DNA of 64,000 bases, from positions 64,360 to 128,359 of the forward strand of contig CAMTUG010000003.1 in the NCBI GenBank assembly GCA_947084965.1. The letters are read 5' to 3'. A program made the position numbers and the translations under genes. Under the pieces are notes generated by a model, which worked only from the letters and a program-made list of their open reading frames with translations, was not told where the DNA came from and ran no database searches. Positions 12,088 to 63,998 of this stretch are shown in pieces. The stretch's first letter is position 1. Each line of letters begins with the position of its first letter. The stretch comes from an uncultured Parcubacteria group bacterium. Lineage in GTDB: Bacteria > Patescibacteriota > Patescibacteriia > UBA9934 > CAMTUG01.

Positions 12088-12346
12088 ACAATTTACCTAG
12101 AACAAATTGTACCATTTTAAGGCGCACAAGTCAATGATTTTTGCTGCTAACTTTAGCTAAAATTTTGGGCTGATCTATAATTGTGTACACCAATTATGTG
12201 GATATCTTGAGTAAATCTTATTAACCACAGGTATTACAGGAGATATCCACTCACGTTATATGTTTGTCTATACTAGTGTTGACAAATATTGATTTTAACT
12301 GTGGACATCTGTCATCGAAGTGTGGAGAAGTCACACTGTGTGCAAA

Positions 12347-12362
12347 TGTTTCACGTGAAACA
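12347..12362. promoter_or_regulatory. Perfect 16-bp palindrome TGTTTCACGTGAAACA, copy 1.
   Basis: Read directly in the sequence; it has a CACGTG core. Confidence 0.6.
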
Positions 12363-12817
12363 CTCTACGTATCTTTCGGTCTCGCGCCTTGATATTGTTA
12401 ACGGCACCTCCATTGCTCAACATCATGCGCTCAACATACCCTTCACGAATGGTCAGCACGTCACCGGACGAATGCGCTCCGGAAATCTTTCGAAAGGACT
12501 GACGGATTGAGCGTCGACTCTCTTTTTTCGTCGGGATTCGTTACTCCTTCAAGTCGGGTTGGAAGTTAGTGTCCTTTTGTCTGGCTCCCTCCGTCTGCAT
12601 AAATATCTGATGAGAATGGCGGTGCTCCGCGATTCGGATTGTTATACCCAAATGGATTAAGCCGCGGAGCAGGATCATGTCGCGACATTTAAGGCTAAGA
12701 ATCTATCTCACGACGGGATTCTACGAAGCGGTGAGAGGCGACCGCATCACCGATATGAAAATTGCGGATGGCAGATTATATAAAACAAAAATCACCAGGA
12801 TGCCCTGATGAATTTTG

Positions 12818-12907: not shown

Positions 12908-12927
12908 AATGTTTCACGTGAAACATT
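12908..12927. promoter_or_regulatory. Perfect 20-bp palindrome AATGTTTCACGTGAAACATT, copy 2, in the spacer between tRNA-Ala and tRNA-Arg.
   Basis: Read directly. It shares the 16-bp core of copy 1, and a half-site GTTTCACGTGG recurs at 13038-13048. Confidence 0.6.
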
Positions 12928-14220: not shown

Positions 14221-15189
14221 GTGATAGTCTCCGCTCTGGAGGCTTACATGACCCAGCCCTTTAACCTGCAGCGACTGTGTGTCCCGTCGGACGAAGCTCG
14301 CCGGACGGCGAGGCACGAGCTGACCCTCTCGATGATTCGGGTGGGGTTCACTCGCCTCGTCGATCATGGCGTTGATTCGGCGCTCGTCGAGCGCGTGCGA
14401 TGGATCACGTCTCAACTCTACACCCTGCCCGAAGCGGTGCTTCTCGCCTGTGATGGCCGGCCATTCGACGTCCAGCGCGGCTACGGACCCATCGGCACCG
14501 AAGCCTACGAAGGACAGAAGCTCGAGCTGAAGCGGATGTTCTCGGTCGGCGACTACCCGGGTGAGCACCCGCTCTACGGGAGCTACCCACTCTTCTGGCC
14601 GCTCGATCCTGCCGATCTCGTGGAGGTCATGCGTCTCTACGATGCGCTTCTCGAGATCGCCATCCTGCTGACCCGGGCGATCGTCATCGATCTCGGGCTC
14701 CCTCCGGACGACTTCATGCGTCCCTCGGAACGGACCGACTCGGTCTTCCGCCTGCTCGAGAATCCGGCGCTTCCCGAGGACGCTACCACAGCATCGTTCT
14801 GTCGCAACAACCGACACGTCGATTCCGGGATGCTGACCGTGATGGTTCCGGCGACCGTCCCCGGACTGGTGGTCGAAGGATCTGACGGCGTGGCTCGGCA
14901 GTTCGGCTGCGAAGGGGGCGAACTCGTGGTGAACACGGGGCGACTCCTCGAGCTGATGCTCGCGGCTCGGCGCGCGGAGATCGACCGTGAACGCTTCCCG
15001 GTTCTCCCGACCGCCCGCCCGCACTGGGTCGAGATCGTCCCGGGCCACACCGGTGCCCGCAACTCTTTCCCGTTCTTCCTTTGGCCCGACCCGCACCGCC
15101 CGATCGGTGACGGTCGGTGCGCCTGGGAACACCTGCGGGACGAACTCACCCGCCACAAGACCCGCCAGCAGGTTCGCGTCTCCTCATGA
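14221..15189 (+). CDS. Isopenicillin-N-synthase-family 2-oxoglutarate/Fe(II)-dependent oxygenase (oxygenase A). GC is about 64%.
   Basis: It has a DIOX_N-like N-terminus, an HVDSGMLTV (HxD) motif, and a C-terminal H...RxS pattern (HTGARNSFPFFLWP). It starts with GTG at 14221, with an ATG alternative at 14248. Confidence 0.6.
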   Translation: MIVSALEAYMTQPFNLQRLCVPSDEARRTARHELTLSMIRVGFTRLVDHGVDSALVERVRWITSQLYTLPEAVLLACDGRPFDVQRGYGPIGTEAYEGQKLELKRMFSVGDYPGEHPLYGSYPLFWPLDPADLVEVMRLYDALLEIAILLTRAIVIDLGLPPDDFMRPSERTDSVFRLLENPALPEDATTASFCRNNRHVDSGMLTVMVPATVPGLVVEGSDGVARQFGCEGGELVVNTGRLLELMLAARRAEIDRERFPVLPTARPHWVEIVPGHTGARNSFPFFLWPDPHRPIGDGRCAWEHLRDELTRHKTRQQVRVSS

Positions 15190-15289
15190 TCCTGCTCCCT
15201 AAGACCGCGCCTCCCACTTCTCGGGCGGCGCGGAGTCTGTTTATTGACAGACCGATAGTTGGGCACTAGTCTCTGTTTGGGAGGTACTT

Positions 15290-15916
15290 ATGTTTGGATG
15301 GAAGCCAGAAGTTCCGCAACTGGTCATCGCGGGTGGGCCCGGTTCGGGGAAGGACAAGGTGATCGCTCGCATCCTCGCTACCTACCCGGGGGCGTTCCAC
15401 GTCCTCGGGGAGACCGCCGGGATGTTCATCCGCGCCCACGCTCTCGAGCCGCCGTTCCTCGGCGAAGACCTGAGCGTCTGGCAGAAGGCGATCGCCGCCG
15501 CCCAGCACGCCGCCGAAGAGATGGGGCAGATCATGGCCCGCCGCAAGAACGCGCTCGTTCTCTGCAACCGCGGTCGGCCGGACGGCGCTGGCTACATCGA
15601 CGGAGGGATCGATCACTTCCTGACCTTCGTCGGTGGAACCCTCTCGGACCACCTCGATCCCTACGACATGGTCATCTTCCTCGACACCCCGGACGAGGAG
15701 ATCTACGTCTCGACCACTGCGCCCGGGGCGGATGGGTACAATCCCGACCGCTTCGAGACGCACGAACAGGCTGTCCACCGTGCTCTTCGCCTGAAGGCGA
15801 TCTGGACGCTCCACCCGGACTGTCGTGTCGTTCCGGCGATGCCGACGATCGAACGGAAGTTCGAGGGAGTCGCCGGCCACATCGATGAGTTCCTGCGTCG
15901 TCACGGCAGGAACTGA
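15290..15916 (+). CDS. P-loop NTPase, a putative small-molecule or nucleoside kinase-like protein of 208 aa. GC is about 66%.
   Basis: It carries a Walker A motif GGPGSGKD near the N-terminus and has an RBS (GGGAGG) upstream. Confidence 0.55.
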   Translation: MFGWKPEVPQLVIAGGPGSGKDKVIARILATYPGAFHVLGETAGMFIRAHALEPPFLGEDLSVWQKAIAAAQHAAEEMGQIMARRKNALVLCNRGRPDGAGYIDGGIDHFLTFVGGTLSDHLDPYDMVIFLDTPDEEIYVSTTAPGADGYNPDRFETHEQAVHRALRLKAIWTLHPDCRVVPAMPTIERKFEGVAGHIDEFLRRHGRN

Positions 15917-16037
15917 CCTCACAGATCACGCGTTGGCCGCTCTGGTACTCAGGGCGGCTTCGACGTTAGTGGGCCCAGCATTTGCAGAGATTTTTGATCA
16001 TTGCTAGGGTGGACGCGTCCCCAACCCGGAGCCTTTC

Positions 16038-17093
16038 ATGTCCACCCTCCGCCTGCGCAACATCGACCTCACGCCGATCACGCTCTCCGCGCACAGCGGG
16101 GAGGCCAGCGACAGGGTTGCTCACCGCGTCGTCGATTCCCTCGTCGAGACCGGGGCCGTCGTCGTCCGGAGCCCATTTGTCCAAGACGGCGACAATACGA
16201 GCTACCTCAAGATGCTCGAAGGCTACTGCGGCCGCTCCCAGGAAGAGCTCCGTGCTGACGAGCGCCCCGAAGCCTTCCGTCAGGTGGGGATCACCCTTCC
16301 CGGCGGCGAGGACTTCCACCTGAGCCAGCACTTCCGTGATCAGCTCGGCTGTCGGATGCTGACCGGCGATCGGGCGCCCTACCCCTGTGACGGAGCGAAT
16401 CTCCACATGCGCTTCTTCTGGCGCCACGGCGAGCGTCGTCACAGCCGCCTCTTCCCGCAGTCGCACGCGGACCCCGTGATCCCCGCCGGGATCCCTGAGT
16501 GGGAAGCGACGATGACCGGCTGGGGCAACAAGATGTACGCTTCGGGCGAGCTTCTGATGCGCCACGTCGAGCGCGGACTGGGTGTCACTCCCGGCTCCCT
16601 CGTCGAGATGCTCCGCTTCGGCCCGCATCTCGTCGCCCCGACCGCGATCGATCTCGCCGGCCTGCCTCTCGGGACGGTCACGAGCGATGTGCACACCGAC
16701 TTCAACCCGCTGACCCTCCACGGAGCTGCGGCGTACTCGACGCTCGTCTGCTGGACCAAGGGCGGGCTTCCGTTCCTGGTCCGCGTCCCGCCCGGATGTC
16801 TGCTCGTCCAAGCCGGCGTCGGTCTCGAGTGGATGACCGGTGGGGCGATCAAGGCCGGCTACCACCAGACGGTCGTCCTGCCCGAGACGATCCGGCAGAT
16901 CGAGACGCTCGCTCCCGGGCGCTCGACCATTCGCGCGTCGAGCACCTTCTTCCTTCACTTCGACTGGGAGGCGACGCTCCAGGTTCTCCCCGAGCTTCGC
17001 TACCCCGGCTGCGACGATCTCTACACGTCGATGCTCGTCGGCGACCACGCCCTCCAGGTCATCCGGGCGATCGGTCTGGCCAAGCAACGCTGA
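16038..17093 (+). CDS. Isopenicillin-N-synthase-family 2OG/Fe(II) oxygenase (oxygenase B). GC is about 65%.
   Basis: It has a DIOX_N-like N-terminus (ITLSAHSGEASDRVAHRVVDSLVETGAVVVRSPF), an HTDFNPLTLH facial-triad HxD motif, and a downstream His/Arg. Confidence 0.65.
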   Translation: MSTLRLRNIDLTPITLSAHSGEASDRVAHRVVDSLVETGAVVVRSPFVQDGDNTSYLKMLEGYCGRSQEELRADERPEAFRQVGITLPGGEDFHLSQHFRDQLGCRMLTGDRAPYPCDGANLHMRFFWRHGERRHSRLFPQSHADPVIPAGIPEWEATMTGWGNKMYASGELLMRHVERGLGVTPGSLVEMLRFGPHLVAPTAIDLAGLPLGTVTSDVHTDFNPLTLHGAAAYSTLVCWTKGGLPFLVRVPPGCLLVQAGVGLEWMTGGAIKAGYHQTVVLPETIRQIETLAPGRSTIRASSTFFLHFDWEATLQVLPELRYPGCDDLYTSMLVGDHALQVIRAIGLAKQR

Positions 17094-22244: not shown

Positions 22245-22435
22245 TGTGGGTTTTCTCGTTGGTGATGCGGTGGCCCAGCTGTTAAATTAGGATTAAACAG
22301 CTAGGGCATCGCGCGACCTGTTAGGCCGGGAAAAAGGGGACGGGCCACGAACCGTGAGTTCGTGGCCCGGTGGAGCCCCGCGGAAGGCGCGGGGGAGAAG
22401 CGAATCTCGAGCGGCGATCTACGCCGCGAGACTCG

Positions 22436-23272
22436 CTACATCGCGGCCTGCTGCTCGTAGCCGAGCTTGTTGCCGGCGATCGGCTTGTAGGTGAGCTCGG
22501 TCACGGGGCCGTCGGAGGTGTCGCGGGACTTGCCCATGACCAGCGTGTCGTCCTTGCCGGCGACCGGGCCGACGATCTGGAACTTCGCCTTCTTCTGGCT
22601 GAGGACCGCGAAGTTGCCGTTCCAGGCGACCTTGTAGCTGGTCTTGGGGCCCGAGACGTAGTAGACGTCCTCGTTGGCCGGGCGGGAGATGGTGGTCACC
22701 ACGTCGTCGAAGGTGCCGACCTGCTCGGCCTTGAACTCGGCGTCGTCCTTGAGCCAGGCGATGAGGTCGTCCTTCTTCATGAAGTGGGCGGCGTTCTTGG
22801 TGACGATCCGCAGCCCGTCCTTCCCGTCGTTGAGGTCCTGGATGTCCGCGAGCGGGATCTCCTTCATCTTCATGCCGGCGATGCCGACCTTGGCGACCTT
22901 GTCGGTGAGCGCCAGGCCGAAGCCGGTCGAGAAGTTGGGGGTGGAGGTGGAGGAGAGGAGCTTGCCGTCGAACTCGTCGCGCGCGACCGAGTCGTTGATC
23001 TTGGCGTCCGCGACGTAGCCGACGACCTTGGTGTTGGTGTCGAAGTCGATCGCGAAGACGTGGCCGATCTGGGCCTTGGTGTCGATGTCGAACTGCACGG
23101 CGACGGACGGCTTCACGTCGAGCTCGTCCTTGGCGTTGGGGGTCTGCTGGACCTGGAACTGGTAGGTCGGGTTCTCCAGGTCGAGGCTGAACCCGACGAT
23201 GTTGGCGCGGTTGATGGTGACGGCGGTGTCGCCGAGGGTGTCGATGTTGCCGGTGAGGATCAGGAGGTGCAC
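22436..23272 (-). CDS. Hypothetical protein of 278 aa, GC about 64%, starting with GTG.
   Basis: Its amino-acid composition looks like a real protein. It is followed on the minus strand by a hairpin plus T-run terminator (22333-22371). Confidence 0.5.
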   Translation of the reverse strand: MHLLILTGNIDTLGDTAVTINRANIVGFSLDLENPTYQFQVQQTPNAKDELDVKPSVAVQFDIDTKAQIGHVFAIDFDTNTKVVGYVADAKINDSVARDEFDGKLLSSTSTPNFSTGFGLALTDKVAKVGIAGMKMKEIPLADIQDLNDGKDGLRIVTKNAAHFMKKDDLIAWLKDDAEFKAEQVGTFDDVVTTISRPANEDVYYVSGPKTSYKVAWNGNFAVLSQKKAKFQIVGPVAGKDDTLVMGKSRDTSDGPVTELTYKPIAGNKLGYEQQAAM

Positions 23273-38372: not shown

Positions 38373-39258
38373 ATGCCTGATTACCGTGCAGAGGCTTTGA
38401 AGTTCCTGGGGGAAGAGGTGACTCGTGTTGCGCCTGTGCGCGTTGGTCGCCGTAGCGGAGACGAGGTGTCGGGGATCGCGCGAGCCGTGACGGACGCAGA
38501 AGCAGCGTTCGATCGGGAGGCGGTCGTCCGGGCCTACGACGCAATGGCCGCACTCTACCCGACCCACATCCTCGCGGACCCCCTCGAGCTACGCTGAACA
38601 GCTCGTTGTCATTTGCAGCCACCTCGAACGGCTTCGCCCCTCGCGGGTGGTCGATGCCGGATGCGGGGTCGGGATCGGTACGACCTTCCTCGCCCGGGTC
38701 TTCCCGAGGCTCTCCTTTTCCGCCTACGACTTTTCGCCAGCAGCAGTCAGGGATGCTCAGGCGAGGGCGCTCCACCACAAGCTCACGAATCTCCGGTTCA
38801 ACGTCCTTCACCACGAGGAGGCGACGGCGACGCTCGGGCTCGGGTCGGCGGACTTCGTGATCGCTCGCGGATCGATCGGGTACCTGCCCGGAAAGATCCT
38901 GCGGTTCGACAAGATGCAGGATCCGGCGCAGGAGATCACTCGCCTCATCTACGCCAACGATCCGGTGATTGCCGAGTGGTGCATGCAGATGCAGGGGGTC
39001 ACGGATCTCGTGCGTCCGGGCGGGGCGATCCTCGACATCCACGTCTGGTCTGATCCGGCCATCGTCCTTCGGCACTTCCTCTACAAGAAGCTGGGGCTCT
39101 TCCCGCAGGTGGGTGTGCGCCAGCGGATCATCGATGGCGGGGCCTACCGTGCCCTCGACCGCGCGCTGCCCGGTTGGGATCAACTCGTTCCGCTCCCGGG
39201 AGAGATCGCGGAGATTCTCCTCCGTCGTTCGGAACTCGTGAACCTCTACACACGGTAG
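38373..39258 (+). pseudogene. Class I SAM-dependent methyltransferase interrupted by a +1/-1 frameshift near 38570-38600. The listed ORFs are 38373-38597 and 38647-39258. GC is about 66%.
   Basis: The upstream frame ends ...AYDAMAALYPTHILADPLELR*. The downstream frame, read back without a stop, gives ...YAEQLVVICSHLERLRPSRVVDAGCGVGIG (motif I). Confidence 0.45.
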
Positions 39259-57403: not shown

Positions 57404-57426
57404 TTGTCTTCGGTCTAGGATGTGAG

Positions 57427-57455
57427 AAGGCGGGACCCAGTTTGGGCCCCGCCTT
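57427..57455. terminator. GC-rich hairpin between convergent genes, a probable bidirectional terminator.
   Basis: AAGGCGGGaCCCagtttGGGcCCCGCCTT. Confidence 0.5.
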
Positions 57456-57460
57456 TGAAG

Positions 57461-58363
57461 TTAGCACAGACGAACAACCGGCGGAATCGGTGCTGTCGGA
57501 TCCGACTTCCAGAAGAAGACGCACGGCTCGAAGATGATGTCGATGATCCCTCCGGCATCGGTGAAGTGAGCGGCGAGCGCGTCGTAGACGATTCGGCCCT
57601 CGGTCCGATCGAGGAATTGCGCCGTGTAGACGCGGTGTCCGGCTTCGGTCAGGACCGGGTAGAAGCCCATGTTGAGGAGGCTGGCGCGTAGGAGGGTCAT
57701 GGTCGCGCCGTCCGTTTTCTCGAGCGGGATTCCGCGAGCCGGAGTCGGCGTTTTCACATGAATGTCCGCCCGCTTGAATTCGCCATCGCTTGCTTCGTCT
57801 ACCGAGCGCAAGGTCCCAGCGGTGAACGGGAGCACGCCTCCGTCCTTCCACGGCCTCCACCAGTCCACCGTCGTACGATAAGACGTGGGGTAGATTTCGA
57901 GTTCCAGATACCCGCGTACTTCGCTGTAGCTCTTCCAGACCGTGATCAGATCCTCGCAGGCCTTCCGAACGAGACGGAAGATTCCTGATCGGTGCCCGGC
58001 ATCCGTCACGAATTTGAGGGTGTAGTGATCCGGGTAGCAGTTGGGTACGAACTCAACGAAGTGATCCGGCTCGAACCCGAGGGCAACGATCGTGTTCACG
58101 AAGTCGACGGGGAGGGTGGTGCAGTCGAGGTGAGCCTCGATGACCGTTCCCGACGTGGGAGGGTTGGGCAGTAGGCACTCCTCCCGGATGGCGGCGGCGA
58201 GCCTTCCTACCTTGCCGGGGTGCTTGTTCGTGAGCGCGATGAGCTCAGCGATCGATGGTTCGCAGATCCCGTCGAACGGCTGGCGAGATCGGGCGAGCGG
58301 CAGGATGCCTGCCGGGAGCGTGTAGGAAGTCAAGCGGTGAGCCAGGTGGTCGTAGATGTGCAT
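57461..58363 (-). CDS. Hypothetical protein of 300 aa, GC about 63%.
   Basis: ORF track. It is divergent from a TrmB-family regulator across an AT-rich 144-nt gap. Confidence 0.5.
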   Translation of the reverse strand: MHIYDHLAHRLTSYTLPAGILPLARSRQPFDGICEPSIAELIALTNKHPGKVGRLAAAIREECLLPNPPTSGTVIEAHLDCTTLPVDFVNTIVALGFEPDHFVEFVPNCYPDHYTLKFVTDAGHRSGIFRLVRKACEDLITVWKSYSEVRGYLELEIYPTSYRTTVDWWRPWKDGGVLPFTAGTLRSVDEASDGEFKRADIHVKTPTPARGIPLEKTDGATMTLLRASLLNMGFYPVLTEAGHRVYTAQFLDRTEGRIVYDALAAHFTDAGGIIDIIFEPCVFFWKSDPTAPIPPVVRLC

Positions 58364-58507
58364 GTAAACCTCCTTTTAGAGAGTACTAGACGCGCATAAA
58401 GTTGACAGAAAGTACGACAACGAATAGATTTACTATTAGCTTTATGTTGTAAATGTTGATGGTCGTTAATTTAAGATTCGACGGAAATTTCGTCATTTTA
58501 AAACTCT

Positions 58508-59245
58508 ATGATGAAAAAAGTCCTTCAGGATGCGGGACTGAACGGTAACGAAGCCACGGTGTACCTGGCTATTCTTGAGCTTGGTTCGACCAATATCGCC
58601 ATGCTTACAAAGGAGACAAAGCTCCCGCGCTCAACGGTCTATAGTGTCCTGGCTACGCTCGAGCCGACGGGATTAGTGTTTACATATCTCAGGAAAAAGA
58701 CGCGGATGTACACGGCCCATGATCCGAGTATCATCCTTAAGAAAGCAAAGGAAAGAGTGGCTTTGATTGAAGAGGCTCTGCCTGAGCTTAACGATCTCTA
58801 TCGCTCATCACAAAGTCATCCGCAAATTCGGTACTTTCAGGGACGATCGGAGATTCGAGAAATGTATGATGGGATTTTAAAAATGCGCGGACTAAAAATG
58901 TACGACATCATTTGCTCTGAAGAGGCGTGGTTAGAGATGGGTCAGTCGTTTGCGGAACGGTTCAAGTCCAAAAGAGCTGAAAAGAAAATCATGACCCGTT
59001 TGATTCTGGGTCATTCCCCTCCTGCACTGGCTCGCAAGAGGGCAGAAGAGGAAACGTATTCTGAAGTGAAAATCATTCCGCCAGGACTTCACTGGTCTGC
59101 GACCGCCGGTTGCTATATCTTCGAGGATCGAGTAATTTTCTTGGGCTACAAGAAGGAGCACATCGCGGTGGAGATTCAATCAAAGGAGATTGCTCAGTTG
59201 ATGCAGATGAACTTCGAGTTCATGTGGCGGTTTCTGGCGAGATAA
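58508..59245 (+). CDS. TrmB-family transcriptional regulator (regulator 1).
   Basis: N-terminal wHTH (ATVYLAILELGSTNIAMLTKETKLPRSTVYSVL) plus a TrmB C-terminal domain. Confidence 0.6.
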   Translation: MMKKVLQDAGLNGNEATVYLAILELGSTNIAMLTKETKLPRSTVYSVLATLEPTGLVFTYLRKKTRMYTAHDPSIILKKAKERVALIEEALPELNDLYRSSQSHPQIRYFQGRSEIREMYDGILKMRGLKMYDIICSEEAWLEMGQSFAERFKSKRAEKKIMTRLILGHSPPALARKRAEEETYSEVKIIPPGLHWSATAGCYIFEDRVIFLGYKKEHIAVEIQSKEIAQLMQMNFEFMWRFLAR

Positions 59246-59255
59246 CATTAACGTT

Positions 59256-59978
59256 ATGGCACGACATTCGCACTGGCATAATATTCAGGTGAAAAAAGGG
59301 AAGGCGGACGCGGTGAAGGCCAAGGCGTTCACTAAGTTGGCGATTGCGGTGACGCTTGCGGCCAAAGAAGGCGGCGGGGATCCGACGTTCAACTTTAAGT
59401 TGCGCATGGCGATTGATGCCGCTCGGGCGGCGAACATGACCAACGATAAAATCGAGCGCGCTGTTGCCCGTGGACTTGGTACCGGCGAAGGTGGGCAGGT
59501 CGAGGAAGTGTTGTACGAAGGGTTTGGTCCAGGCGGTGCGGCAGTTTTGATTGAAGGAGTTACCGACAATCGCGCGCGCACCGTGGCTGAGGTAAAAATG
59601 ATCGTTTCGAAAAACGGTGGATCGATCGGGGCTTCCGGTTCGGTGAAGTGGATGTTTGATCGCAAAGCGGTGGTGCGGATTGAGGCCGATCAGTTGCCGC
59701 AGGATCGTGATGCGTTCGAGCTGACGTTGATCGAAGCGGGCGCGGATGATATTCAATCAGCCGAAGAAGGAGTCACGGTCCTCGGGAACGTGAAGTCACT
59801 CCAGATGATCAAAGAAGCGGCCGAAGCGCAGGGGTGCATAATCGCCTCTGCCGGGTTTGAGTACATCCCAAATCAAACGGTCGCGCTTTCAGACGCGGAT
59901 TCTGGGGCGCTCGAGGCTCTTGTAGGGGTGATCGAAGAGAATGATGATGTGGTTAGTGTGTATACAAACGAGGCTTAA
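59256..59978 (+). CDS. yebC: YebC/PmpR-family transcriptional regulatory protein.
   Basis: MARHSHWHNIQVKKGKADAVKAKAFTKL... Confidence 0.85.
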   Translation: MARHSHWHNIQVKKGKADAVKAKAFTKLAIAVTLAAKEGGGDPTFNFKLRMAIDAARAANMTNDKIERAVARGLGTGEGGQVEEVLYEGFGPGGAAVLIEGVTDNRARTVAEVKMIVSKNGGSIGASGSVKWMFDRKAVVRIEADQLPQDRDAFELTLIEAGADDIQSAEEGVTVLGNVKSLQMIKEAAEAQGCIIASAGFEYIPNQTVALSDADSGALEALVGVIEENDDVVSVYTNEA

Positions 59979-59979
59979 T

Positions 59980-60465
59980 ATGAAAACGATCCTCGGCATC
60001 GACCCAGGGATCGGTCGTACCGGCTACGGTGTGATTCGGGTTGATGGGTTGAAGATAGAAGTAGTGACGTTTGGGTGCATTTCAACGCCGGTGAATACAC
60101 CGGTTGGGGCTCGGCTGGTGGAACTTGAACGGGATCTGACCGAGTTGATCCAGACGTACAAACCGGATCGTGTTTCTGTTGAGCAGCTCTTGTTTACAAA
60201 AAACGTTTCAACCGGAATCGTCGTTGGCGAGGCGCGTGGAGTTGTTCTTCTTGTTGCGGAGAAAGCACACCTGCCTGTCGTGGAATTCACACCATCGCAA
60301 ATTAAACTTGCCGTCACTGGTGATGGCAACGCAGACAAAGGTCAAGTTCAAGACATGGTCATGCGACTTTTGAATCTCGCCAAGCGTCCTACACCCGACG
60401 ACGCCGCTGATGCACTGGCGATTGCGATCTGCGGCTCAACGGTTAACGAAAAAGCTCTCCGGTAA
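59980..60465 (+). CDS. ruvC: Holliday junction resolvase RuvC.
   Basis: MKTILGIDPGIGRTGYGVI..., with the start at the ATG at 59980. It lies immediately after yebC, the conserved yebC-ruvC order. Confidence 0.85.
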   Translation: MKTILGIDPGIGRTGYGVIRVDGLKIEVVTFGCISTPVNTPVGARLVELERDLTELIQTYKPDRVSVEQLLFTKNVSTGIVVGEARGVVLLVAEKAHLPVVEFTPSQIKLAVTGDGNADKGQVQDMVMRLLNLAKRPTPDDAADALAIAICGSTVNEKALR

Positions 60466-60479
60466 AGGAGAGTTTTTTC
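60455..60479 (+). terminator. Rho-independent terminator after ruvC.
   Basis: CTCTCCggtaaaGGAGAG followed by TTTTTT. Confidence 0.7.
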
Positions 60480-60480
60480 A

Positions 60481-60555
60481 TGGAGCGGGTAGGGGGAGTC
60501 GAACCCCCATCATCAGTTTGGAAAACTGAGATAATAACCGCTATACGATACCCGC
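60481..60555 (-). tRNA. tRNA-Gly (anticodon TCC).
   Basis: The reverse complement reads GCGGGTA...TCAGT-TTTCCAA-ACTGA...GGGGGTTCGACTCCCCC-TACCCGC-T-CCA. Confidence 0.8.
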
Positions 60556-60556
60556 A

Positions 60557-60634
60557 TGGTCGGGCCGGCGAGGCTCGAACTCGCGGCCTCCTGGTCCCAA
60601 ACCAGGCGCGCTACCAACTGCGCCACGGCCCGAC
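60557..60634 (-). tRNA. tRNA-Pro (anticodon TGG).
   Basis: The reverse complement reads GTCGGGC...CCTGG-TTTGGGA-CCAGG...GCGAGTTCGAGCCTCGC...GCCCGAC-CA. Confidence 0.8.
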
Positions 60635-60712
60635 GTGTGCTCGAGTGAAGCTCGGTGCCACGCAAATATAGCGGAATTGAGTGGGTTTGTAAAGGCTCAA
60701 GGGAGGCCCATA

Positions 60713-60752
60713 AAACGCAGCGCCGCCCCGGGAGTGTCCCAGGGCGGGCGTG
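60713..60752. repeat. 40-bp GC-rich hairpin repeat, copy 1.
   Basis: The sequence aaacgcagcgccgccccgggagtgtcccagggcgggcgtg is identical to copy 2. Confidence 0.7.
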
Positions 60753-60793
60753 GTGCTATCCTAGCTTGGGCGCGGGGAGGCAGGCGGCTTGTG

Positions 60794-61609
60794 TCACCTT
60801 CCGCGAGCGAGGATCAGGGCGACCGAAGCGATAGCGTCCGCTTCGGTGCGGCTGATCGCTCCGTCGCGGGTGATGATCGAGAATGCTCCGATGAGATCGG
60901 GGCACAGAGTGCGCATGTTCTCCATGCTGTCCCCCACCTCGACTTCGATCCAGCGGGTCGGTTCCATGATGATGCGGAGGGCCTCGCCGACCTCGGTGGC
61001 ATTGTTGAGCCGGGTCCAGTCGGAGAGACGATACGGACCGGGTTCCATCTCCACCTTCTGGGCCAAGTCCTTGGAGGCTGGCCAGAGCCCGACCCCGAAT
61101 CCCGCGTTCTCGATCGAACCACAGCGGAATCCGGCATCTGCGCAGGTCTGGACGAACCAGCGCCACCAGCGATCGAGGTGCTCCCGGGTAGCCGATCGCG
61201 GCGGGATCCCTTCCTGCTCCAGCCAGAAGGAGAAGGGGTAGCTTTGTGCCGCCGTCACAACGATCGCCCGTTGGGCTTCGTTTGCCACGTGAGACTGGGT
61301 GGTGCGCATCACCATGATGCCGATGATGCCGATGAGTGCATTGGCGTGTCCGTTCGCCGCCGCATCCCGCAGGGCGAGGACGACATCGGGACGATCCAGG
61401 AGGTATCCAGTGAGTCCCGCCAGGCGCGCAGGGGTGATCTCCCCGCCATCCCTGCGGGTCAGACGGTATTCATCCCTTCCATCGGGGCCCGGTGCGATTT
61501 CCAGAACGAAGGACTCAATTGCGGGGGCGGGATGTTCCATCTTCTTCTCCGATGCGTGGTGATTCTCGCCATGTTGTGCTGCGAGTGACAACTGTAAAAA
61601 AATAATCAA
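60794..61609 (-). CDS. Hypothetical protein of 271 aa, GC about 64%.
   Basis: ORF track. It is divergent from TrmB regulator 2. The + strand ORF 60635-61588 runs over tRNA genes and is rejected. Confidence 0.5.
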   Translation of the reverse strand: MIIFLQLSLAAQHGENHHASEKKMEHPAPAIESFVLEIAPGPDGRDEYRLTRRDGGEITPARLAGLTGYLLDRPDVVLALRDAAANGHANALIGIIGIMVMRTTQSHVANEAQRAIVVTAAQSYPFSFWLEQEGIPPRSATREHLDRWWRWFVQTCADAGFRCGSIENAGFGVGLWPASKDLAQKVEMEPGPYRLSDWTRLNNATEVGEALRIIMEPTRWIEVEVGDSMENMRTLCPDLIGAFSIITRDGAISRTEADAIASVALILARGR

Positions 61610-61737
61610 AGTACGTCAATAACTCTGTCTATTTATGTGTTTAGTTAATAAAGAGTCCAGTAAAGTCAAATATTCATCTACTTTTAGTCGTCAAGAAAGT
61701 TGACAGAAGTTCCTAACCGCGAGATGATATTAACCCT

Positions 61738-62496
61738 ATGGACCTACGAAAAGGACTTCAACAAACAGGGCTCACAGACAAGCAAACGGATGTGTATTTG
61801 GCCTGTCTTCAGCTCGGGGTGGCTACGGTTTTTGAGATCGCAAAATACGCGGCACAAAAGCGGCCGACGACGTATTTGATTTTAGATCAACTCGAAGAAA
61901 TGGGATTGGTCAGTCGAGTTCGAAAAGAGACTAAGGTTTTTTATAAAGCCGAAGAGCCAGAGCTGTTGCTTACTCAGATCCAATCAAAAGAAAAGTTGGT
62001 ACAGGATTTACTTCCCTCACTGAAAGCGATCTACAACGTTGATCCGGAAAAGCCGGTTATCAAAATTCACGAAGGTATTTCTGGGGTCCGTAATGTATAC
62101 ACGGAGATCTTTACTTACTTAGCGAATCATCCAGAAGAGGAGCTCCTCATTTTTGGATCACTGAAAGATGCTCTAGAGCACTTCGAGACAGAAGTCGTTG
62201 ATTACTTTTATACATCGATCGGTCGAGCGAAGACGCGTGTGCGCGAGATCGGTAATGATGATCATGAAACGCGAAAGTACTATCGGGCGTCTGCACGATT
62301 GAACGAGAATCATCAGATTCGCCTCATTCGTCACGAAGGGGAGTTCGTCCAAACGGATAACTTGTTGTACGGCAATCGTCTGGCGACCTTTTCTGTTAAA
62401 GAACATCTGTTTGTCACAACAACAGAATCAGCTACGATTACCGAAACGTATCGCACCTTATTTAACATGGCGTGGAAAAGTGGAAAGCCAATTTAA
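61738..62496 (+). CDS. TrmB-family transcriptional regulator (regulator 2).
   Basis: wHTH KQTDVYLACLQLGVATVFEIAKYAAQKRPTTYLILDQL. Confidence 0.6.
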   Translation: MDLRKGLQQTGLTDKQTDVYLACLQLGVATVFEIAKYAAQKRPTTYLILDQLEEMGLVSRVRKETKVFYKAEEPELLLTQIQSKEKLVQDLLPSLKAIYNVDPEKPVIKIHEGISGVRNVYTEIFTYLANHPEEELLIFGSLKDALEHFETEVVDYFYTSIGRAKTRVREIGNDDHETRKYYRASARLNENHQIRLIRHEGEFVQTDNLLYGNRLATFSVKEHLFVTTTESATITETYRTLFNMAWKSGKPI

Positions 62497-62534
62497 ACGC
62501 AGCGCCGCCCCGGGAGTGTCCCAGGGCGGGCGTG
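62495..62534. repeat. 40-bp GC-rich hairpin repeat, copy 2.
   Basis: Identical to 60713-60752; it overlaps the stop codon of TrmB regulator 2. Confidence 0.7.
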
Positions 62535-62541
62535 AGCGCAC

Positions 62542-63123
62542 CTAGCGGCCGGAGCCGTCCGTGTGCGGGAAGCGGTAGTTGTAGCGGTGATTGCTGGCGC
62601 GTTCGAGCGCCAGGCGGAAGTAGTTGGCGCCGCGGCGCGAGCTGCGGCGGATCTGGCGCTGGATGCGCCGGGTGGCGGAGACGTCGAGCTTGAACGGGAG
62701 GGTGAACTCCCGGGTGCTCGAGTTCCAGAGGAGGTCGATCATGGCGAGCACGAGCGATTCCTTGCTGTCGCGCCGACGGCTGTAGCGTGCGAGGAGGATG
62801 TACATCTCCTCCGTGTCGTACGGCGTGCCGTGGGCCGGCATCATGTACGACTTGAAGGCGACGAAGGCGAATCCCCGCCGGCGCAGGCGCCGCGTGATCA
62901 CCACCTGGTCGCACTTCGAGCCAGCTCCCTCGGTGAACTCGTCGATGTTGATCGACAGCGCCGTGATCGGCTGGCCGCTCGCGACCGCCTCCTGTTCCTT
63001 CATGCGGAGAAGGCGGTTGAGGAAGCGGCTGACCGCCCCCGTGGCCTCGGGGTTCTTGACTGGGATCTTCGACTTGGGCACGGTCCTCCTTCCGTCGGGC
63101 ATCGACGGCGCCTCAGAATTCAT
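62542..63123 (-). CDS. Hypothetical protein of 193 aa, high GC.
   Basis: ORF track. It is preferred over the Arg-rich alternative frames. Confidence 0.4.
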   Translation of the reverse strand: MNSEAPSMPDGRRTVPKSKIPVKNPEATGAVSRFLNRLLRMKEQEAVASGQPITALSINIDEFTEGAGSKCDQVVITRRLRRRGFAFVAFKSYMMPAHGTPYDTEEMYILLARYSRRRDSKESLVLAMIDLLWNSSTREFTLPFKLDVSATRRIQRQIRRSSRRGANYFRLALERASNHRYNYRFPHTDGSGR

Positions 63124-63191
63124 CGGACGATGAATGCTCAGGTGCCGGGCGCGAGGGAGTGTCCCTCGCGCACGTTCACGTAGTCGGGGAC

Positions 63192-63998
63192 CTAGTAGTC
63201 GAAGCCCTTGAGCATCTCGGCGATGCGGTGGGCGAAGGCCCGGCCCGACTCGGTCGTCGGGTAGCGCGGGTCGGTCGAGACGAGGTCGCCGAGGGTGTCG
63301 AGGATCCGGGTGCGGTACGGCCTGGTGCGATCGGCGTAGGCCTCGAGCATCCGCATGCTGACCGTGATGATCGTCTGGTCGAAGCCGATCGTCACGTCGC
63401 TCTTCTCACCGTCGGGGCGCATCGCTTCCTTGATGATCGGCCCACCGATCTTCGAGTTCATCGCCGACAGCACGTCGGAGACGGTCACGAGCGAGAGCAC
63501 CGCCTGGTCGAAGTCGGTCTTCGGCATCGGCAGGCGCCCCCACTTCAGGTAGTAGGCGATCTGCTGCGGCCAGCGCGTCCACTTGTTGCCGAGCTCGCGC
63601 GAGATCACGCTCCTGCCGATCGACTCCGCCTTGCGCTGGAAGTGCTCGGCCGTGTCGGCGAAGGTCGTGAAGGAGCCGGCGACGTCCGAGCTGGCGATCG
63701 CCTCGAAGAGGCGCTTCCAGAGACCGAAGCCGAAGTGGCTGCCGACGATCGGGCCTTCGAGGTCCACGTACCAGACGTAGACCTTGCCGGTGTTGCCGGA
63801 GAGGAGCTCGCGCAGGCGATCGATCACCGCCGTCAGGTTCTCGTCGGTCGGGAAGCGCTGGAAGGTGAACCAGGCGCCGTTGACCTTGTCGAGCCCGGAG
63901 AGCGGCACGAGGACGTTGCCGTTGAAGGCGATCGCCTCGCGCTTCATGAGGGCGTGTTCGTTGTCCGAGTCGCCCACGTCGCACTCGGAGTAGAGCAC
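63192..63998 (-). CDS. Hypothetical protein of at least 268 aa, high GC. It may extend past the window end.
   Basis: ORF track. The alternative frame 63406-63984 is Arg-rich antisense noise. Confidence 0.4.
   Translation of the reverse strand: MLYSECDVGDSDNEHALMKREAIAFNGNVLVPLSGLDKVNGAWFTFQRFPTDENLTAVIDRLRELLSGNTGKVYVWYVDLEGPIVGSHFGFGLWKRLFEAIASSDVAGSFTTFADTAEHFQRKAESIGRSVISRELGNKWTRWPQQIAYYLKWGRLPMPKTDFDQAVLSLVTVSDVLSAMNSKIGGPIIKEAMRPDGEKSDVTIGFDQTIITVSMRMLEAYADRTRPYRTRILDTLGDLVSTDPRYPTTESGRAFAHRIAEMLKGFDY

Follow-up and report, generated by a model that had tools for sequence, protein, structure and literature searches.

Divergent pairs of TrmB-family regulators and GC-rich partner genes, with repeated 3' hairpins, in a Patescibacteria genome

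Genes at the locus

A 64-kb stretch of DNA from an uncultured Parcubacteria group bacterium (GenBank assembly GCA_947084965.1, contig CAMTUG010000003.1, positions 64,360 to 128,359; the whole analysed stretch is called the window here) carries two pairs of divergently transcribed genes, each consisting of an unannotated GC-rich gene on the minus strand and a gene for a TrmB-family regulator on the plus strand. The window also contains rpoB, rpoC, yebC, ruvC and tRNA genes, and sequence comparison places its host among the Patescibacteria (candidate phyla radiation, CPR), as a relative of Magasanikbacteria and Uhrbacteria. Both pairs had been described in an earlier interpretation made from the letters and open reading frames (ORFs) alone, hereafter the sequence-only reading, and we found the ORFs in the orientation described there. 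The four genes are listed below, with GC content at third codon positions given as GC3.

57461-58363, minus strand: X1, 300 amino acids (aa), 62% GC, GC3 0.78; rare unannotated family
58508-59245, plus strand: TrmB1, 245 aa, 48% GC; PF01978
60794-61540, minus strand: X2, 248 aa, 62% GC, GC3 0.74 (composition for 60794-61609); unannotated family
61738-62496, plus strand: TrmB2, 252 aa, 45% GC; PF01978

The contrast in composition between partners and regulators (both partners 62% GC, against 48% for TrmB1 and 45% for TrmB2) thus holds. Measured against the native genes of the window, whose GC3 has a median of 0.60 and a median absolute deviation (MAD) of 0.043, the partners lie about 3-4 MAD above the median and TrmB2 about 3 MAD below it. 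The start of X2 is best placed at ATG 61540, because an independent gene call uses that codon and it is the start that aligns with the family; a 271-aa reading would begin at TTG 61609. With the start at 61540 the gap between X2 and TrmB2 is 197 nucleotides (nt), and not the roughly 130 nt first described.

The regulators are short-type TrmB proteins

Both regulators match the TrmB family PF01978 above its cut-off of 25.6 bits, TrmB1 with 51.5 bits over residues 6-73 (E = 8.9e-14) and TrmB2 with 46.6 bits over residues 7-75. They are 33% identical across their first 124 aa, so that the description of the two modules as paralogous applies to the regulator halves; the partners, between which the sequence-only reading saw no obvious homology, are unrelated, with no BLASTP match between X1 and X2 and an hhalign probability of 0.3%, on which remote homology was rejected as well. 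Y46 is invariant in 27 sequences and is aligned, in a profile alignment to PDB, with the recognition-helix tyrosine of TrmBL2, which is also the closest solved relative of TrmB2. In Pyrococcus TrmB the conserved recognition-helix tyrosine is Y50 (PMC4158304). Neither regulator matched the sugar-binding effector domain PF11495 at E <= 0.01, and scores against the NCBIfam equivalogs for TrmB and TrmBL1 were 18-46 bits, below the cut-offs of 500-650. Therefore, these are short-type regulators like TrmBL2, and a link to sugar control, the classical role of the family, is not supported.

TrmBL2 and TrmBL3 of the Thermococcales offer the nearest comparison. They share with the proteins described here the PF01978 winged helix, the recognition-helix tyrosine, the lack of PF11495 and a similar length (264 aa in TrmBL2, about 250 aa here). 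The present proteins differ in being bacterial (CPR) rather than archaeal, in the sequence of their candidate operators and in having no link to sugar transport genes; with solved TrmB proteins only the first 80-120 residues align, the C-terminal domain being uncharacterised. Both regulators would consist, as we picture them, of a winged-helix DNA-binding domain and a C-terminal domain other than the known sugar-binding one, and by analogy with characterised family members they would be expected to act as dimers or higher oligomers. TrmB2 has 118 homologs, and those with a name come from Magasanikbacteria, Uhrbacteria, Kerfeldbacteria or other Patescibacteria. A full-text literature search pairing TrmB with Patescibacteria or 'candidate phyla radiation' found nothing.

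Such genes can be clustered in related genomes, which are referred to below by locus numbers. Candidatus Magasanikbacteria GW2011_GWA2_56_11 (L017, 2327-11745) carries three TrmB paralogs in less than 10 kb, each divergent to genes without a Pfam match and each with a palindrome of its own before the start codon; one of them faces a three-gene operon whose last gene is DUF4202.

X1 and TrmB1 are inherited together

X1 belongs to a rare family of about 10 homologs: a search of 5.8 billion proteins gave six members, species genomes added a few more, and a metagenome scan for further X1 loci yielded one short contig. The CPR loci with an X1 gene number three (the window, L005/L007 and L003), and each has a TrmB1 ortholog in divergent orientation, with 61% identity to TrmB1 in L005/L007 and about 45% in L003. 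In a neighbour-joining tree the X1 genes of these loci group as a single clade, and their order of similarity is the same as that of TrmB1, which indicates that the pair was inherited together. The TrmB1 ortholog of L003 (5095-5833) is split into ORFs of 87 and 166 aa, and is either a frameshifted pseudogene or affected by a sequencing error.

Relatives of X1 outside the CPR occur in Byssovorax, Acidobacteria and Deltaproteobacteria, and no TrmB match was detected in these loci. X1 adjoins an SBP_bac_3-type ABC transporter in Byssovorax (L004) and in a metagenome-assembled genome (MAG) of Acidobacteria (L010); in a Deltaproteobacteria MAG (L009, 5944-7614) the X1 domain forms one protein with an HD_3/YfbR-like phosphohydrolase domain. 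Judged by gene context, a metabolic role is suggested.

Homology and structure searches on the partners, which the sequence-only reading had recommended, gave new relatives and a confident model of X1 but no known family or close fold. X1 had no match in Pfam (even at E <= 10), NCBIfam, PDB sequences, PADLOC or PHROGs. Its AlphaFold model (predicted local distance difference test, pLDDT, 88.9; predicted template modelling score, pTM, 0.88) has a tandem alpha+beta, ferredoxin-like arrangement, which it shares with the top PDB matches from Foldseek, aldoxime dehydratase and chlorite dismutase. These matches reach a template modelling (TM) score of only about 0.3 at 10-12% identity (best E 7e-4) with no relation at the level of sequence, and a profile search of PDB and Pfam was empty; X1 was accordingly not placed in that superfamily. 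Viral fold matches were weak and fell on uncharacterised phage proteins. Among nine members 29 residues are invariant, and conserved residues alternate along the beta strands (E76/H78/D80, T115/K117, Y152/E154/E156 and D200/H202/K204, with K197 also conserved), which we take to mean that, in the model, they would lie on one face of the sheet, where they would make up a charged pocket rather than a heme site. A probable role for X1 is that of an enzyme whose substrate is a small molecule, either phosphorylated or resembling a nucleotide. The charged residues were also considered as a possible triphosphate tunnel (CYTH-like), an idea that no search result supports.

X2 accompanies several TrmB subfamilies

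A word-index search returned nothing for X2, whereas full phmmer gave 31 matches, which rule out an orphan gene or a non-coding region; X2 is a clear case of a word-index search falsely making a gene look like an orphan. Members of the family have 220-270 residues, are mostly helical and Trp-rich, and share the motifs YPFxxWL, ATRxxLxxWW and NLWKAT with few invariant polar residues, the picture of a helical, non-enzyme-like protein. There was no Pfam match, and the only relative with a taxonomic name is from Candidatus Gracilibacteria, another CPR bacterium. A structure predicted from the single sequence was unusable (pLDDT 39). A likeness to the 18-fold repeat of a 4669-aa SpaA-like pilin was judged spurious, amounting to 25-30% identity over 50 residues, summed over the repeats, with the conserved columns unmatched.

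An X2-family gene is divergent to a TrmB gene in five of the five loci examined (the window, L013, L023, L019 and L021). As identity to TrmB2 drops to 22-32% for the regulators of L019 and L021, the association holds across TrmB subfamilies, of which it covers at least three. The order of tRNA-Gly, tRNA-Pro, partner slot and TrmB2 seen in the window is also kept in L015 (3061-5790), and both flanks of TrmB2 are variable between genomes.

The loci around X2 and TrmB2 relatives hold further genes of note. A Y1 transposase-like gene adjoins the X2 homolog in L019, and in the partner slot of L015 a DDE transposase stands beside a 135-aa partner unrelated to X2. An AbiEii toxin gene in L019 (2497-4858) is followed directly, in the position expected for an AbiEi antitoxin, by a second TrmB-like gene (251 aa).

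Promoter-like sites and candidate operators

Inspection of the two gaps, likewise recommended earlier, gave candidate palindromes at the TrmB promoters and none at the X2 promoter. The elements are:

58402-58430, plus strand: TrmB1 promoter-like site, TTGACA, 17 nt, TAGATT
58479-58495, no strand: palindrome CGACGGAAATTTCGTCA, putative TrmB1 operator, 13 nt upstream of the TrmB1 start codon
61591-61619, minus strand: X2 promoter-like site, TTGACG, 17 nt, TACAGT, with the -35 at 61619-61614
61688-61706, no strand: palindrome TCGTCAAGAAAGTTGACAG, putative TrmB2 operator, overlapping the -35 of the TrmB2 promoter at 61700-61728

The sequence itself shows that the two divergent promoter regions of module 1 overlap. 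The 13-mer AAAGTTGACAGAA at the TrmB1 promoter-like site is also present in module 2. Palindromes of the GAC/GTC type stand 3-20 nt before the start codon in five loci, namely the window, the TrmB1-ortholog loci L007 and L003, and two modules of L017 that are paralogous. The palindrome of TrmB2 has the form (T/C)GTCA-N5/6-TTGACA, its right arm being the -35 hexamer itself; the GTCA...TTGACA core is invariant in five orthologous TrmB2 loci while the surrounding sequence varies, and the element at 61688-61706 is the sole exact match in the window. TrmBL2, by comparison, is a genome-wide chromatin protein. The distance from the end of the TrmB2 -10 to the ATG is 9 nt in the window and 8-9 nt in four of the five orthologous loci, a spacing that implies an mRNA with no leader or almost none. 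On the other side of the gap, the context of the X2 -35, TTATTGAC, is kept in L013 and L023.

Autoregulation is known in the TrmB family, and TrmBL1 binds the so-called TGM site, TATCAC-N5-GTGATA (PMC4158304). The candidate operators have the same 6-N5-6 geometry, a hexamer palindrome with a 5-nt spacer. Autoregulation of the TrmB genes through the predicted palindromes is, as far as sequence conservation can tell, well supported. Control of the partner is something we infer from conserved adjacency and, in module 1, also from the overlap of the divergent promoter regions. With adjacency recurring for X1 (L005/L007, L003) and for X2 (L013, L019, L021, L023) and palindromes conserved at the TrmB promoters, the earlier notion of a regulator-partner unit has gained weight.

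A hairpin at the 3' ends of GC-rich genes

Module 2 is bracketed by an exact 40-bp repeat, the 40-mer, and further hairpins and genes lie around it and beside X1:

60713-60752, minus strand: 40-mer copy A, upstream of the tRNA promoter and 41 nt past the X2 stop codon
62495-62534, minus strand: 40-mer copy B, 7 nt 3' of the stop codon of 62542-63123, with a 2-nt overlap with the TrmB2 stop codon
63149-63171, minus strand: third hairpin, 3' of 63192-63998; core GGGAGTGTCCC, outer stem different and fully compensated
57426-57455, minus strand: GC-rich hairpin between a convergent 458-aa gene and X1; 13-bp stem, -25.9 kcal/mol, z -4.4
60481-60632, minus strand: tRNA-Gly(UCC) and tRNA-Pro(UGG), directly downstream of copy A on the minus strand
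62542-63123, minus strand: GC-rich gene of no assigned family, 193 aa, GC3 0.93
63192-63998, minus strand: GC-rich gene of no assigned family, at least 268 aa, GC3 0.97; runs to the window end

The repeat had been reported before and is confirmed (0.00 copies expected from shuffles), but its stem is longer than the 8 bp then given, with about 12-13 pairs including one G-U, on the minus strand. There it folds into a continuous stem at -32.4 kcal/mol, better than on the plus strand, where the G-U pair becomes a C-A mismatch. The 40-mer therefore most likely has its effect in RNA transcribed from the GC-rich genes. Its position and strand-specific folding support the earlier suggestion of a shared terminator. 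The 11-mer GGGAGTGTCCC occurs in three copies in the window with 0 expected. The hairpin at 57426-57455, whose sequence is unlike the 40-mer, would be a 3' hairpin or terminator of X1.

L013, the closest ortholog locus, has GC-rich hairpins at both equivalent positions, and these differ from each other; the one after TrmB2 starts with the same AAACGC...GCCGCCCGGGA, and the end of the one after X2 has a similar GCGCTGC-TTT tail. The hairpin positions are therefore ancestral, and we read the identity of the two copies in the window as homogenisation and not a fresh insertion. The 31-nt core of the 40-mer had no match in viral contigs or in 185,579 species genomes, the host genome evidently not being among the latter.

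Next to the third hairpin, a 20-nt inverted repeat (63106-63147, 85% complementary) has its downstream arm over the start codon of 62542-63123. Folded jointly, this repeat and the hairpin at 63149-63171 reach -43.9 kcal/mol (z -5.4), and the repeat may be a translational or transcriptional control element.

Interpretation of the two modules

We put at about 0.6 the probability that TrmB1-X1 and TrmB2-X2 are two independent local regulator-target pairs and that the 40-mer is a 3' hairpin of GC-rich minus-strand genes. The pairs are then of a known architectural kind, and the new element is the two uncharacterised partner families, X1 and X2. Each TrmB protein would bind the palindrome at its own promoter in the shared intergenic region, TrmB1 at CGACG-N7-CGTCA right before its start codon and TrmB2 at (T/C)GTCA-N5/6-TTGACA over its own -35. 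The bound regulator would repress its own transcription, and the divergent partner would presumably also be controlled, in response to some signal. The 40-mer would serve as an RNA 3' hairpin, a terminator or stabiliser, of the X2 and 62542-63123 transcripts, and its two copies may have been made identical through gene conversion or local copying.

In LysR-type pairs a regulator and its target share one intergenic region, with the operator at the regulator's own promoter. The modules resemble such pairs in the shared intergenic region, the predicted operator at the TrmB promoter and the adjacency conserved across genomes. They differ in protein family, in that the slot beside TrmB2 orthologs can hold X2 or unrelated genes, and in that control of the target is a predicted one. 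Repetitive extragenic palindromic (REP) sequences and 3' stabiliser or terminator hairpins are GC-rich, imperfect, about 35-40 nt long, intergenic at 3' ends and repeated near-identically. REP systems of the RAYT type have many copies across a genome and a cognate Y1 (RAYT) transposase. The 40-mer is like REP and 3' hairpins in being a GC-rich imperfect palindrome of similar length, in lying at gene 3' ends and in its strand-specific G-U pairing, which suggests a function in RNA; unlike them, it has two identical copies and one related copy, all within 2.5 kb, and no matching transposase in the window.

Several observations weigh against this interpretation. No palindrome was found at the X2 promoter, and the TrmB2 operator lies about 100 nt from the predicted X2 transcription start, so that control of X2 by TrmB2 is putative. 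The slot beside the TrmB2 orthologs of L015 (80% identical) and L017 (67%) is occupied by a small, unrelated gene, so X2 is not an obligate companion of TrmB2. That these small genes might be diverged X2 genes was rejected. Between the window and L013 X2 is 34-35% identical where TrmB2 is 87% identical, and between L023 and L021 X2 is 59% identical where the regulators are 23% identical. Such conflicts point to partner exchange or very uneven evolutionary rates and, on these sequence comparisons, appear to fit partner exchange better than a stable co-evolving pair. With regard to the 40-mer, no U-tract follows the stem directly (the tail is CUGCGUUUU or CUGCGUUUAAA and the U run begins 5 nt later), and a simple terminator scan did not call the hairpin; its role as terminator or stabiliser is thus deduced from position. 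An identity of 40/40 at a distance of 1.8 kb is also unusual for independent terminators.

The lasting GC3 excess of the partners is likewise left unexplained by regulator-target pairs. GC3 of the partner exceeds that of its TrmB gene in eight of nine pairs across genomes, and the excess of X1 is present in three genomes of 37-54% GC in which the pair is co-inherited. Slow decay of a foreign composition is insufficient to account for it, because the pair is already at 45-52% protein identity. One idea is frequent recombination with GC-biased repair.

Alternative explanations

Two alternatives are about equally improbable, and both are well behind regulator-target pairs. According to the first, adjacency has no regulatory meaning: the GC-rich genes would be horizontally acquired islands, and the TrmB proteins would control only themselves or distant targets. 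Consistent with this, the GC-rich patches at 14.2-17.1, 21.3-23.4 and 38.3-39.3 kb have no adjoining TrmB gene, the X1 loci of Byssovorax, Acidobacteria and Deltaproteobacteria have no detected TrmB match, both TrmB2 flanks vary between genomes, and palindromes occur at TrmB promoters only. It is harder to reconcile with the divergent placement of X2-family genes in 5/5 loci, which include non-orthologous TrmB genes at 22-32% identity, with X1 and TrmB1 staying together with matching trees while the TrmB1 orthologs are about 45-61% identical, and with the overlapping divergent promoter regions of module 1.

According to the second, a mobile or cassette-like unit would be formed by the X2-TrmB2 segment or by the GC-rich genes and their hairpins, and the 40-bp direct repeats would be recombination sites or scars, a boundary role that the sequence-only reading had also proposed. 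Possible routes would be integration of a circular piece, with the hairpin as the place of recombination, or a transposase that recognises hairpins and spreads REP-like ones. The repeats bracket 1782 bp and are exact, the switch to high GC falls exactly at each copy, and three consecutive GC-rich minus-strand genes end in hairpins with a common 11-nt core and compensated stems. Unrelated genes occupy the slot beside TrmB2 in L015 and L017, with a transposase alongside in L015, and a Y1-type transposase-like gene adjoins the X2 homolog in L019. However, the last of these has no relative anywhere in the window, and the neighbouring genes there have no integrase or transposase domain, nor was any recombinase detected nearby. 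L013, with TrmB2 87% identical, holds the same pair with non-identical hairpins at both positions, which makes these positions ancestral, and L013 and L023 both retain the X2-TrmB2 pair. Moreover, the repeat has no attC-like ends (RYYYAAC/GTTRRRY), lies on the 5' side of the tRNA genes and not at a tRNA 3' end, and, as stated, is absent from the species genomes and viral contigs searched. On both sides a Logan contig (L001, run ERR3478686) terminates 30 nt into the repeat, which would mean that alternative paths exist in the assembly graph, but a k=31 graph breaks at any 40-bp repeat. A cassette boundary is thus not supported.

Less likely again is a two-gene conflict module (toxin-antitoxin or defence), with the TrmB-like protein as autoregulating antitoxin or sensor and the fast-evolving partner as effector. 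Regulator subfamilies and partner families are mixed and matched, X2 diverges to 34-35% identity where TrmB2 keeps 87%, the second TrmB-like gene of L019 is co-directional with the AbiEii toxin gene, and L017 has three TrmB modules within 10 kb, all of which would suit such a system. Against it, X1, X2, 62542-63123 and 63192-63998 had no PADLOC match and the partners no PHROGs match, the regulators matching Csa3 and CasR in PADLOC weakly and through the helix-turn-helix (HTH) domain only. Furthermore, the genes are divergent and not one operon, X2 has few invariant polar residues, and in other phyla X1 stands beside ABC transporters or is fused to an HD hydrolase, which suggests metabolism.

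Slightly further down the scale we place a speculative proposal, in which GC-rich accessory genes would be exchangeable at a regulated docking slot beside CPR TrmB-type regulators, with partners swapped among lineages as well as among regulator subfamilies; in this genome the incoming genes would share a 3' hairpin (core GGGACACUCCC) used in their capture or copying. It fits because the similarities of X2 conflict with those of the regulators and orthologous TrmB2 genes have unrelated partners. Given partner exchange, the hairpin family and the GC3 excess, there is a small chance of something more unusual at work.

Weakest of all is an assembly artefact, a chimeric join or collapsed strain variant at the 40-bp repeat: the independent Logan assembly of the same run does stop at the repeat on both sides and composition changes sharply at both copies, but a repeat of 40 bp is shorter than the reads and normally resolved by assemblers, GC-rich X2 is joined to low-GC TrmB2 without a repeat between them and with the same join in other samples, and other GC-rich patches are flanked by native genes on both sides.

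Other GC-rich genes and repeats in the window

GC-rich patches elsewhere in the window lie at 14.2-17.1, 21.3-23.4 and 38.3-39.3 kb and from 62.5 kb to the window end. With at least four other patches without an adjoining TrmB gene, a special link between TrmB and high GC is not supported. The patch at 14221-17093 (plus strand) is a three-gene island of 64-67% GC (GC3 0.79-0.86) between native RmuC and DNA polymerase III delta genes, coding for a DIOX_N/2OG-Fe(II) oxygenase-like protein, an AAA_28 P-loop protein and a second, weakly 2OG-oxygenase-like protein. Native genes also surround a class I methyltransferase gene of 64% GC (38647-39258, plus strand). A related CPR genome of about 37-47% GC contains a pentapeptide-repeat gene (L005 2822-3223 / L007 7598-7999) of 62% GC and GC3 0.80.

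The gene at 22436-23272 (minus strand) has only G or C (31% G, 69% C) at the third position of all its 278 codons, yet the amino acids that it encodes are native-like in composition (GC1 0.58, GC2 0.35). It had no match in Pfam, PHROGs, PADLOC or phage records, and is followed on its 3' side by a GC hairpin at 22341-22369. So extreme a synonymous bias is hard to account for by ordinary transfer from a high-GC donor. Searches of phage and plasmid records with this gene and with 63192-63998 gave no match, and 62542-63123 had no family match in Pfam, NCBIfam, PADLOC or PHROGs.

A perfect 16-bp palindrome, TGTTTCACGTGAAACA, occurs twice, at 12347-12362 and 12910-12925 (0.01 expected). One copy is in an AT-rich stretch of about 730 nt (12088-12817) with no convincing ORF or Rfam match, and the other is between tRNA-Ala and tRNA-Arg. 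An Rfam scan of the window at the gathering threshold and at E <= 1 returned tRNAs only.

Significance

To conclude, the analysis yields two candidate operators that are open to testing and two unannotated protein families, X1 and X2, each linked to a regulator. If the docking slot were true, hairpin-guided gene exchange would be a process not yet described in CPR bacteria, and the lasting GC3 excess could follow from frequent recombination. The GC3-rich partners, together with the GC3-extreme genes in a genome of 54% GC, may inform on gene flow into these symbionts.

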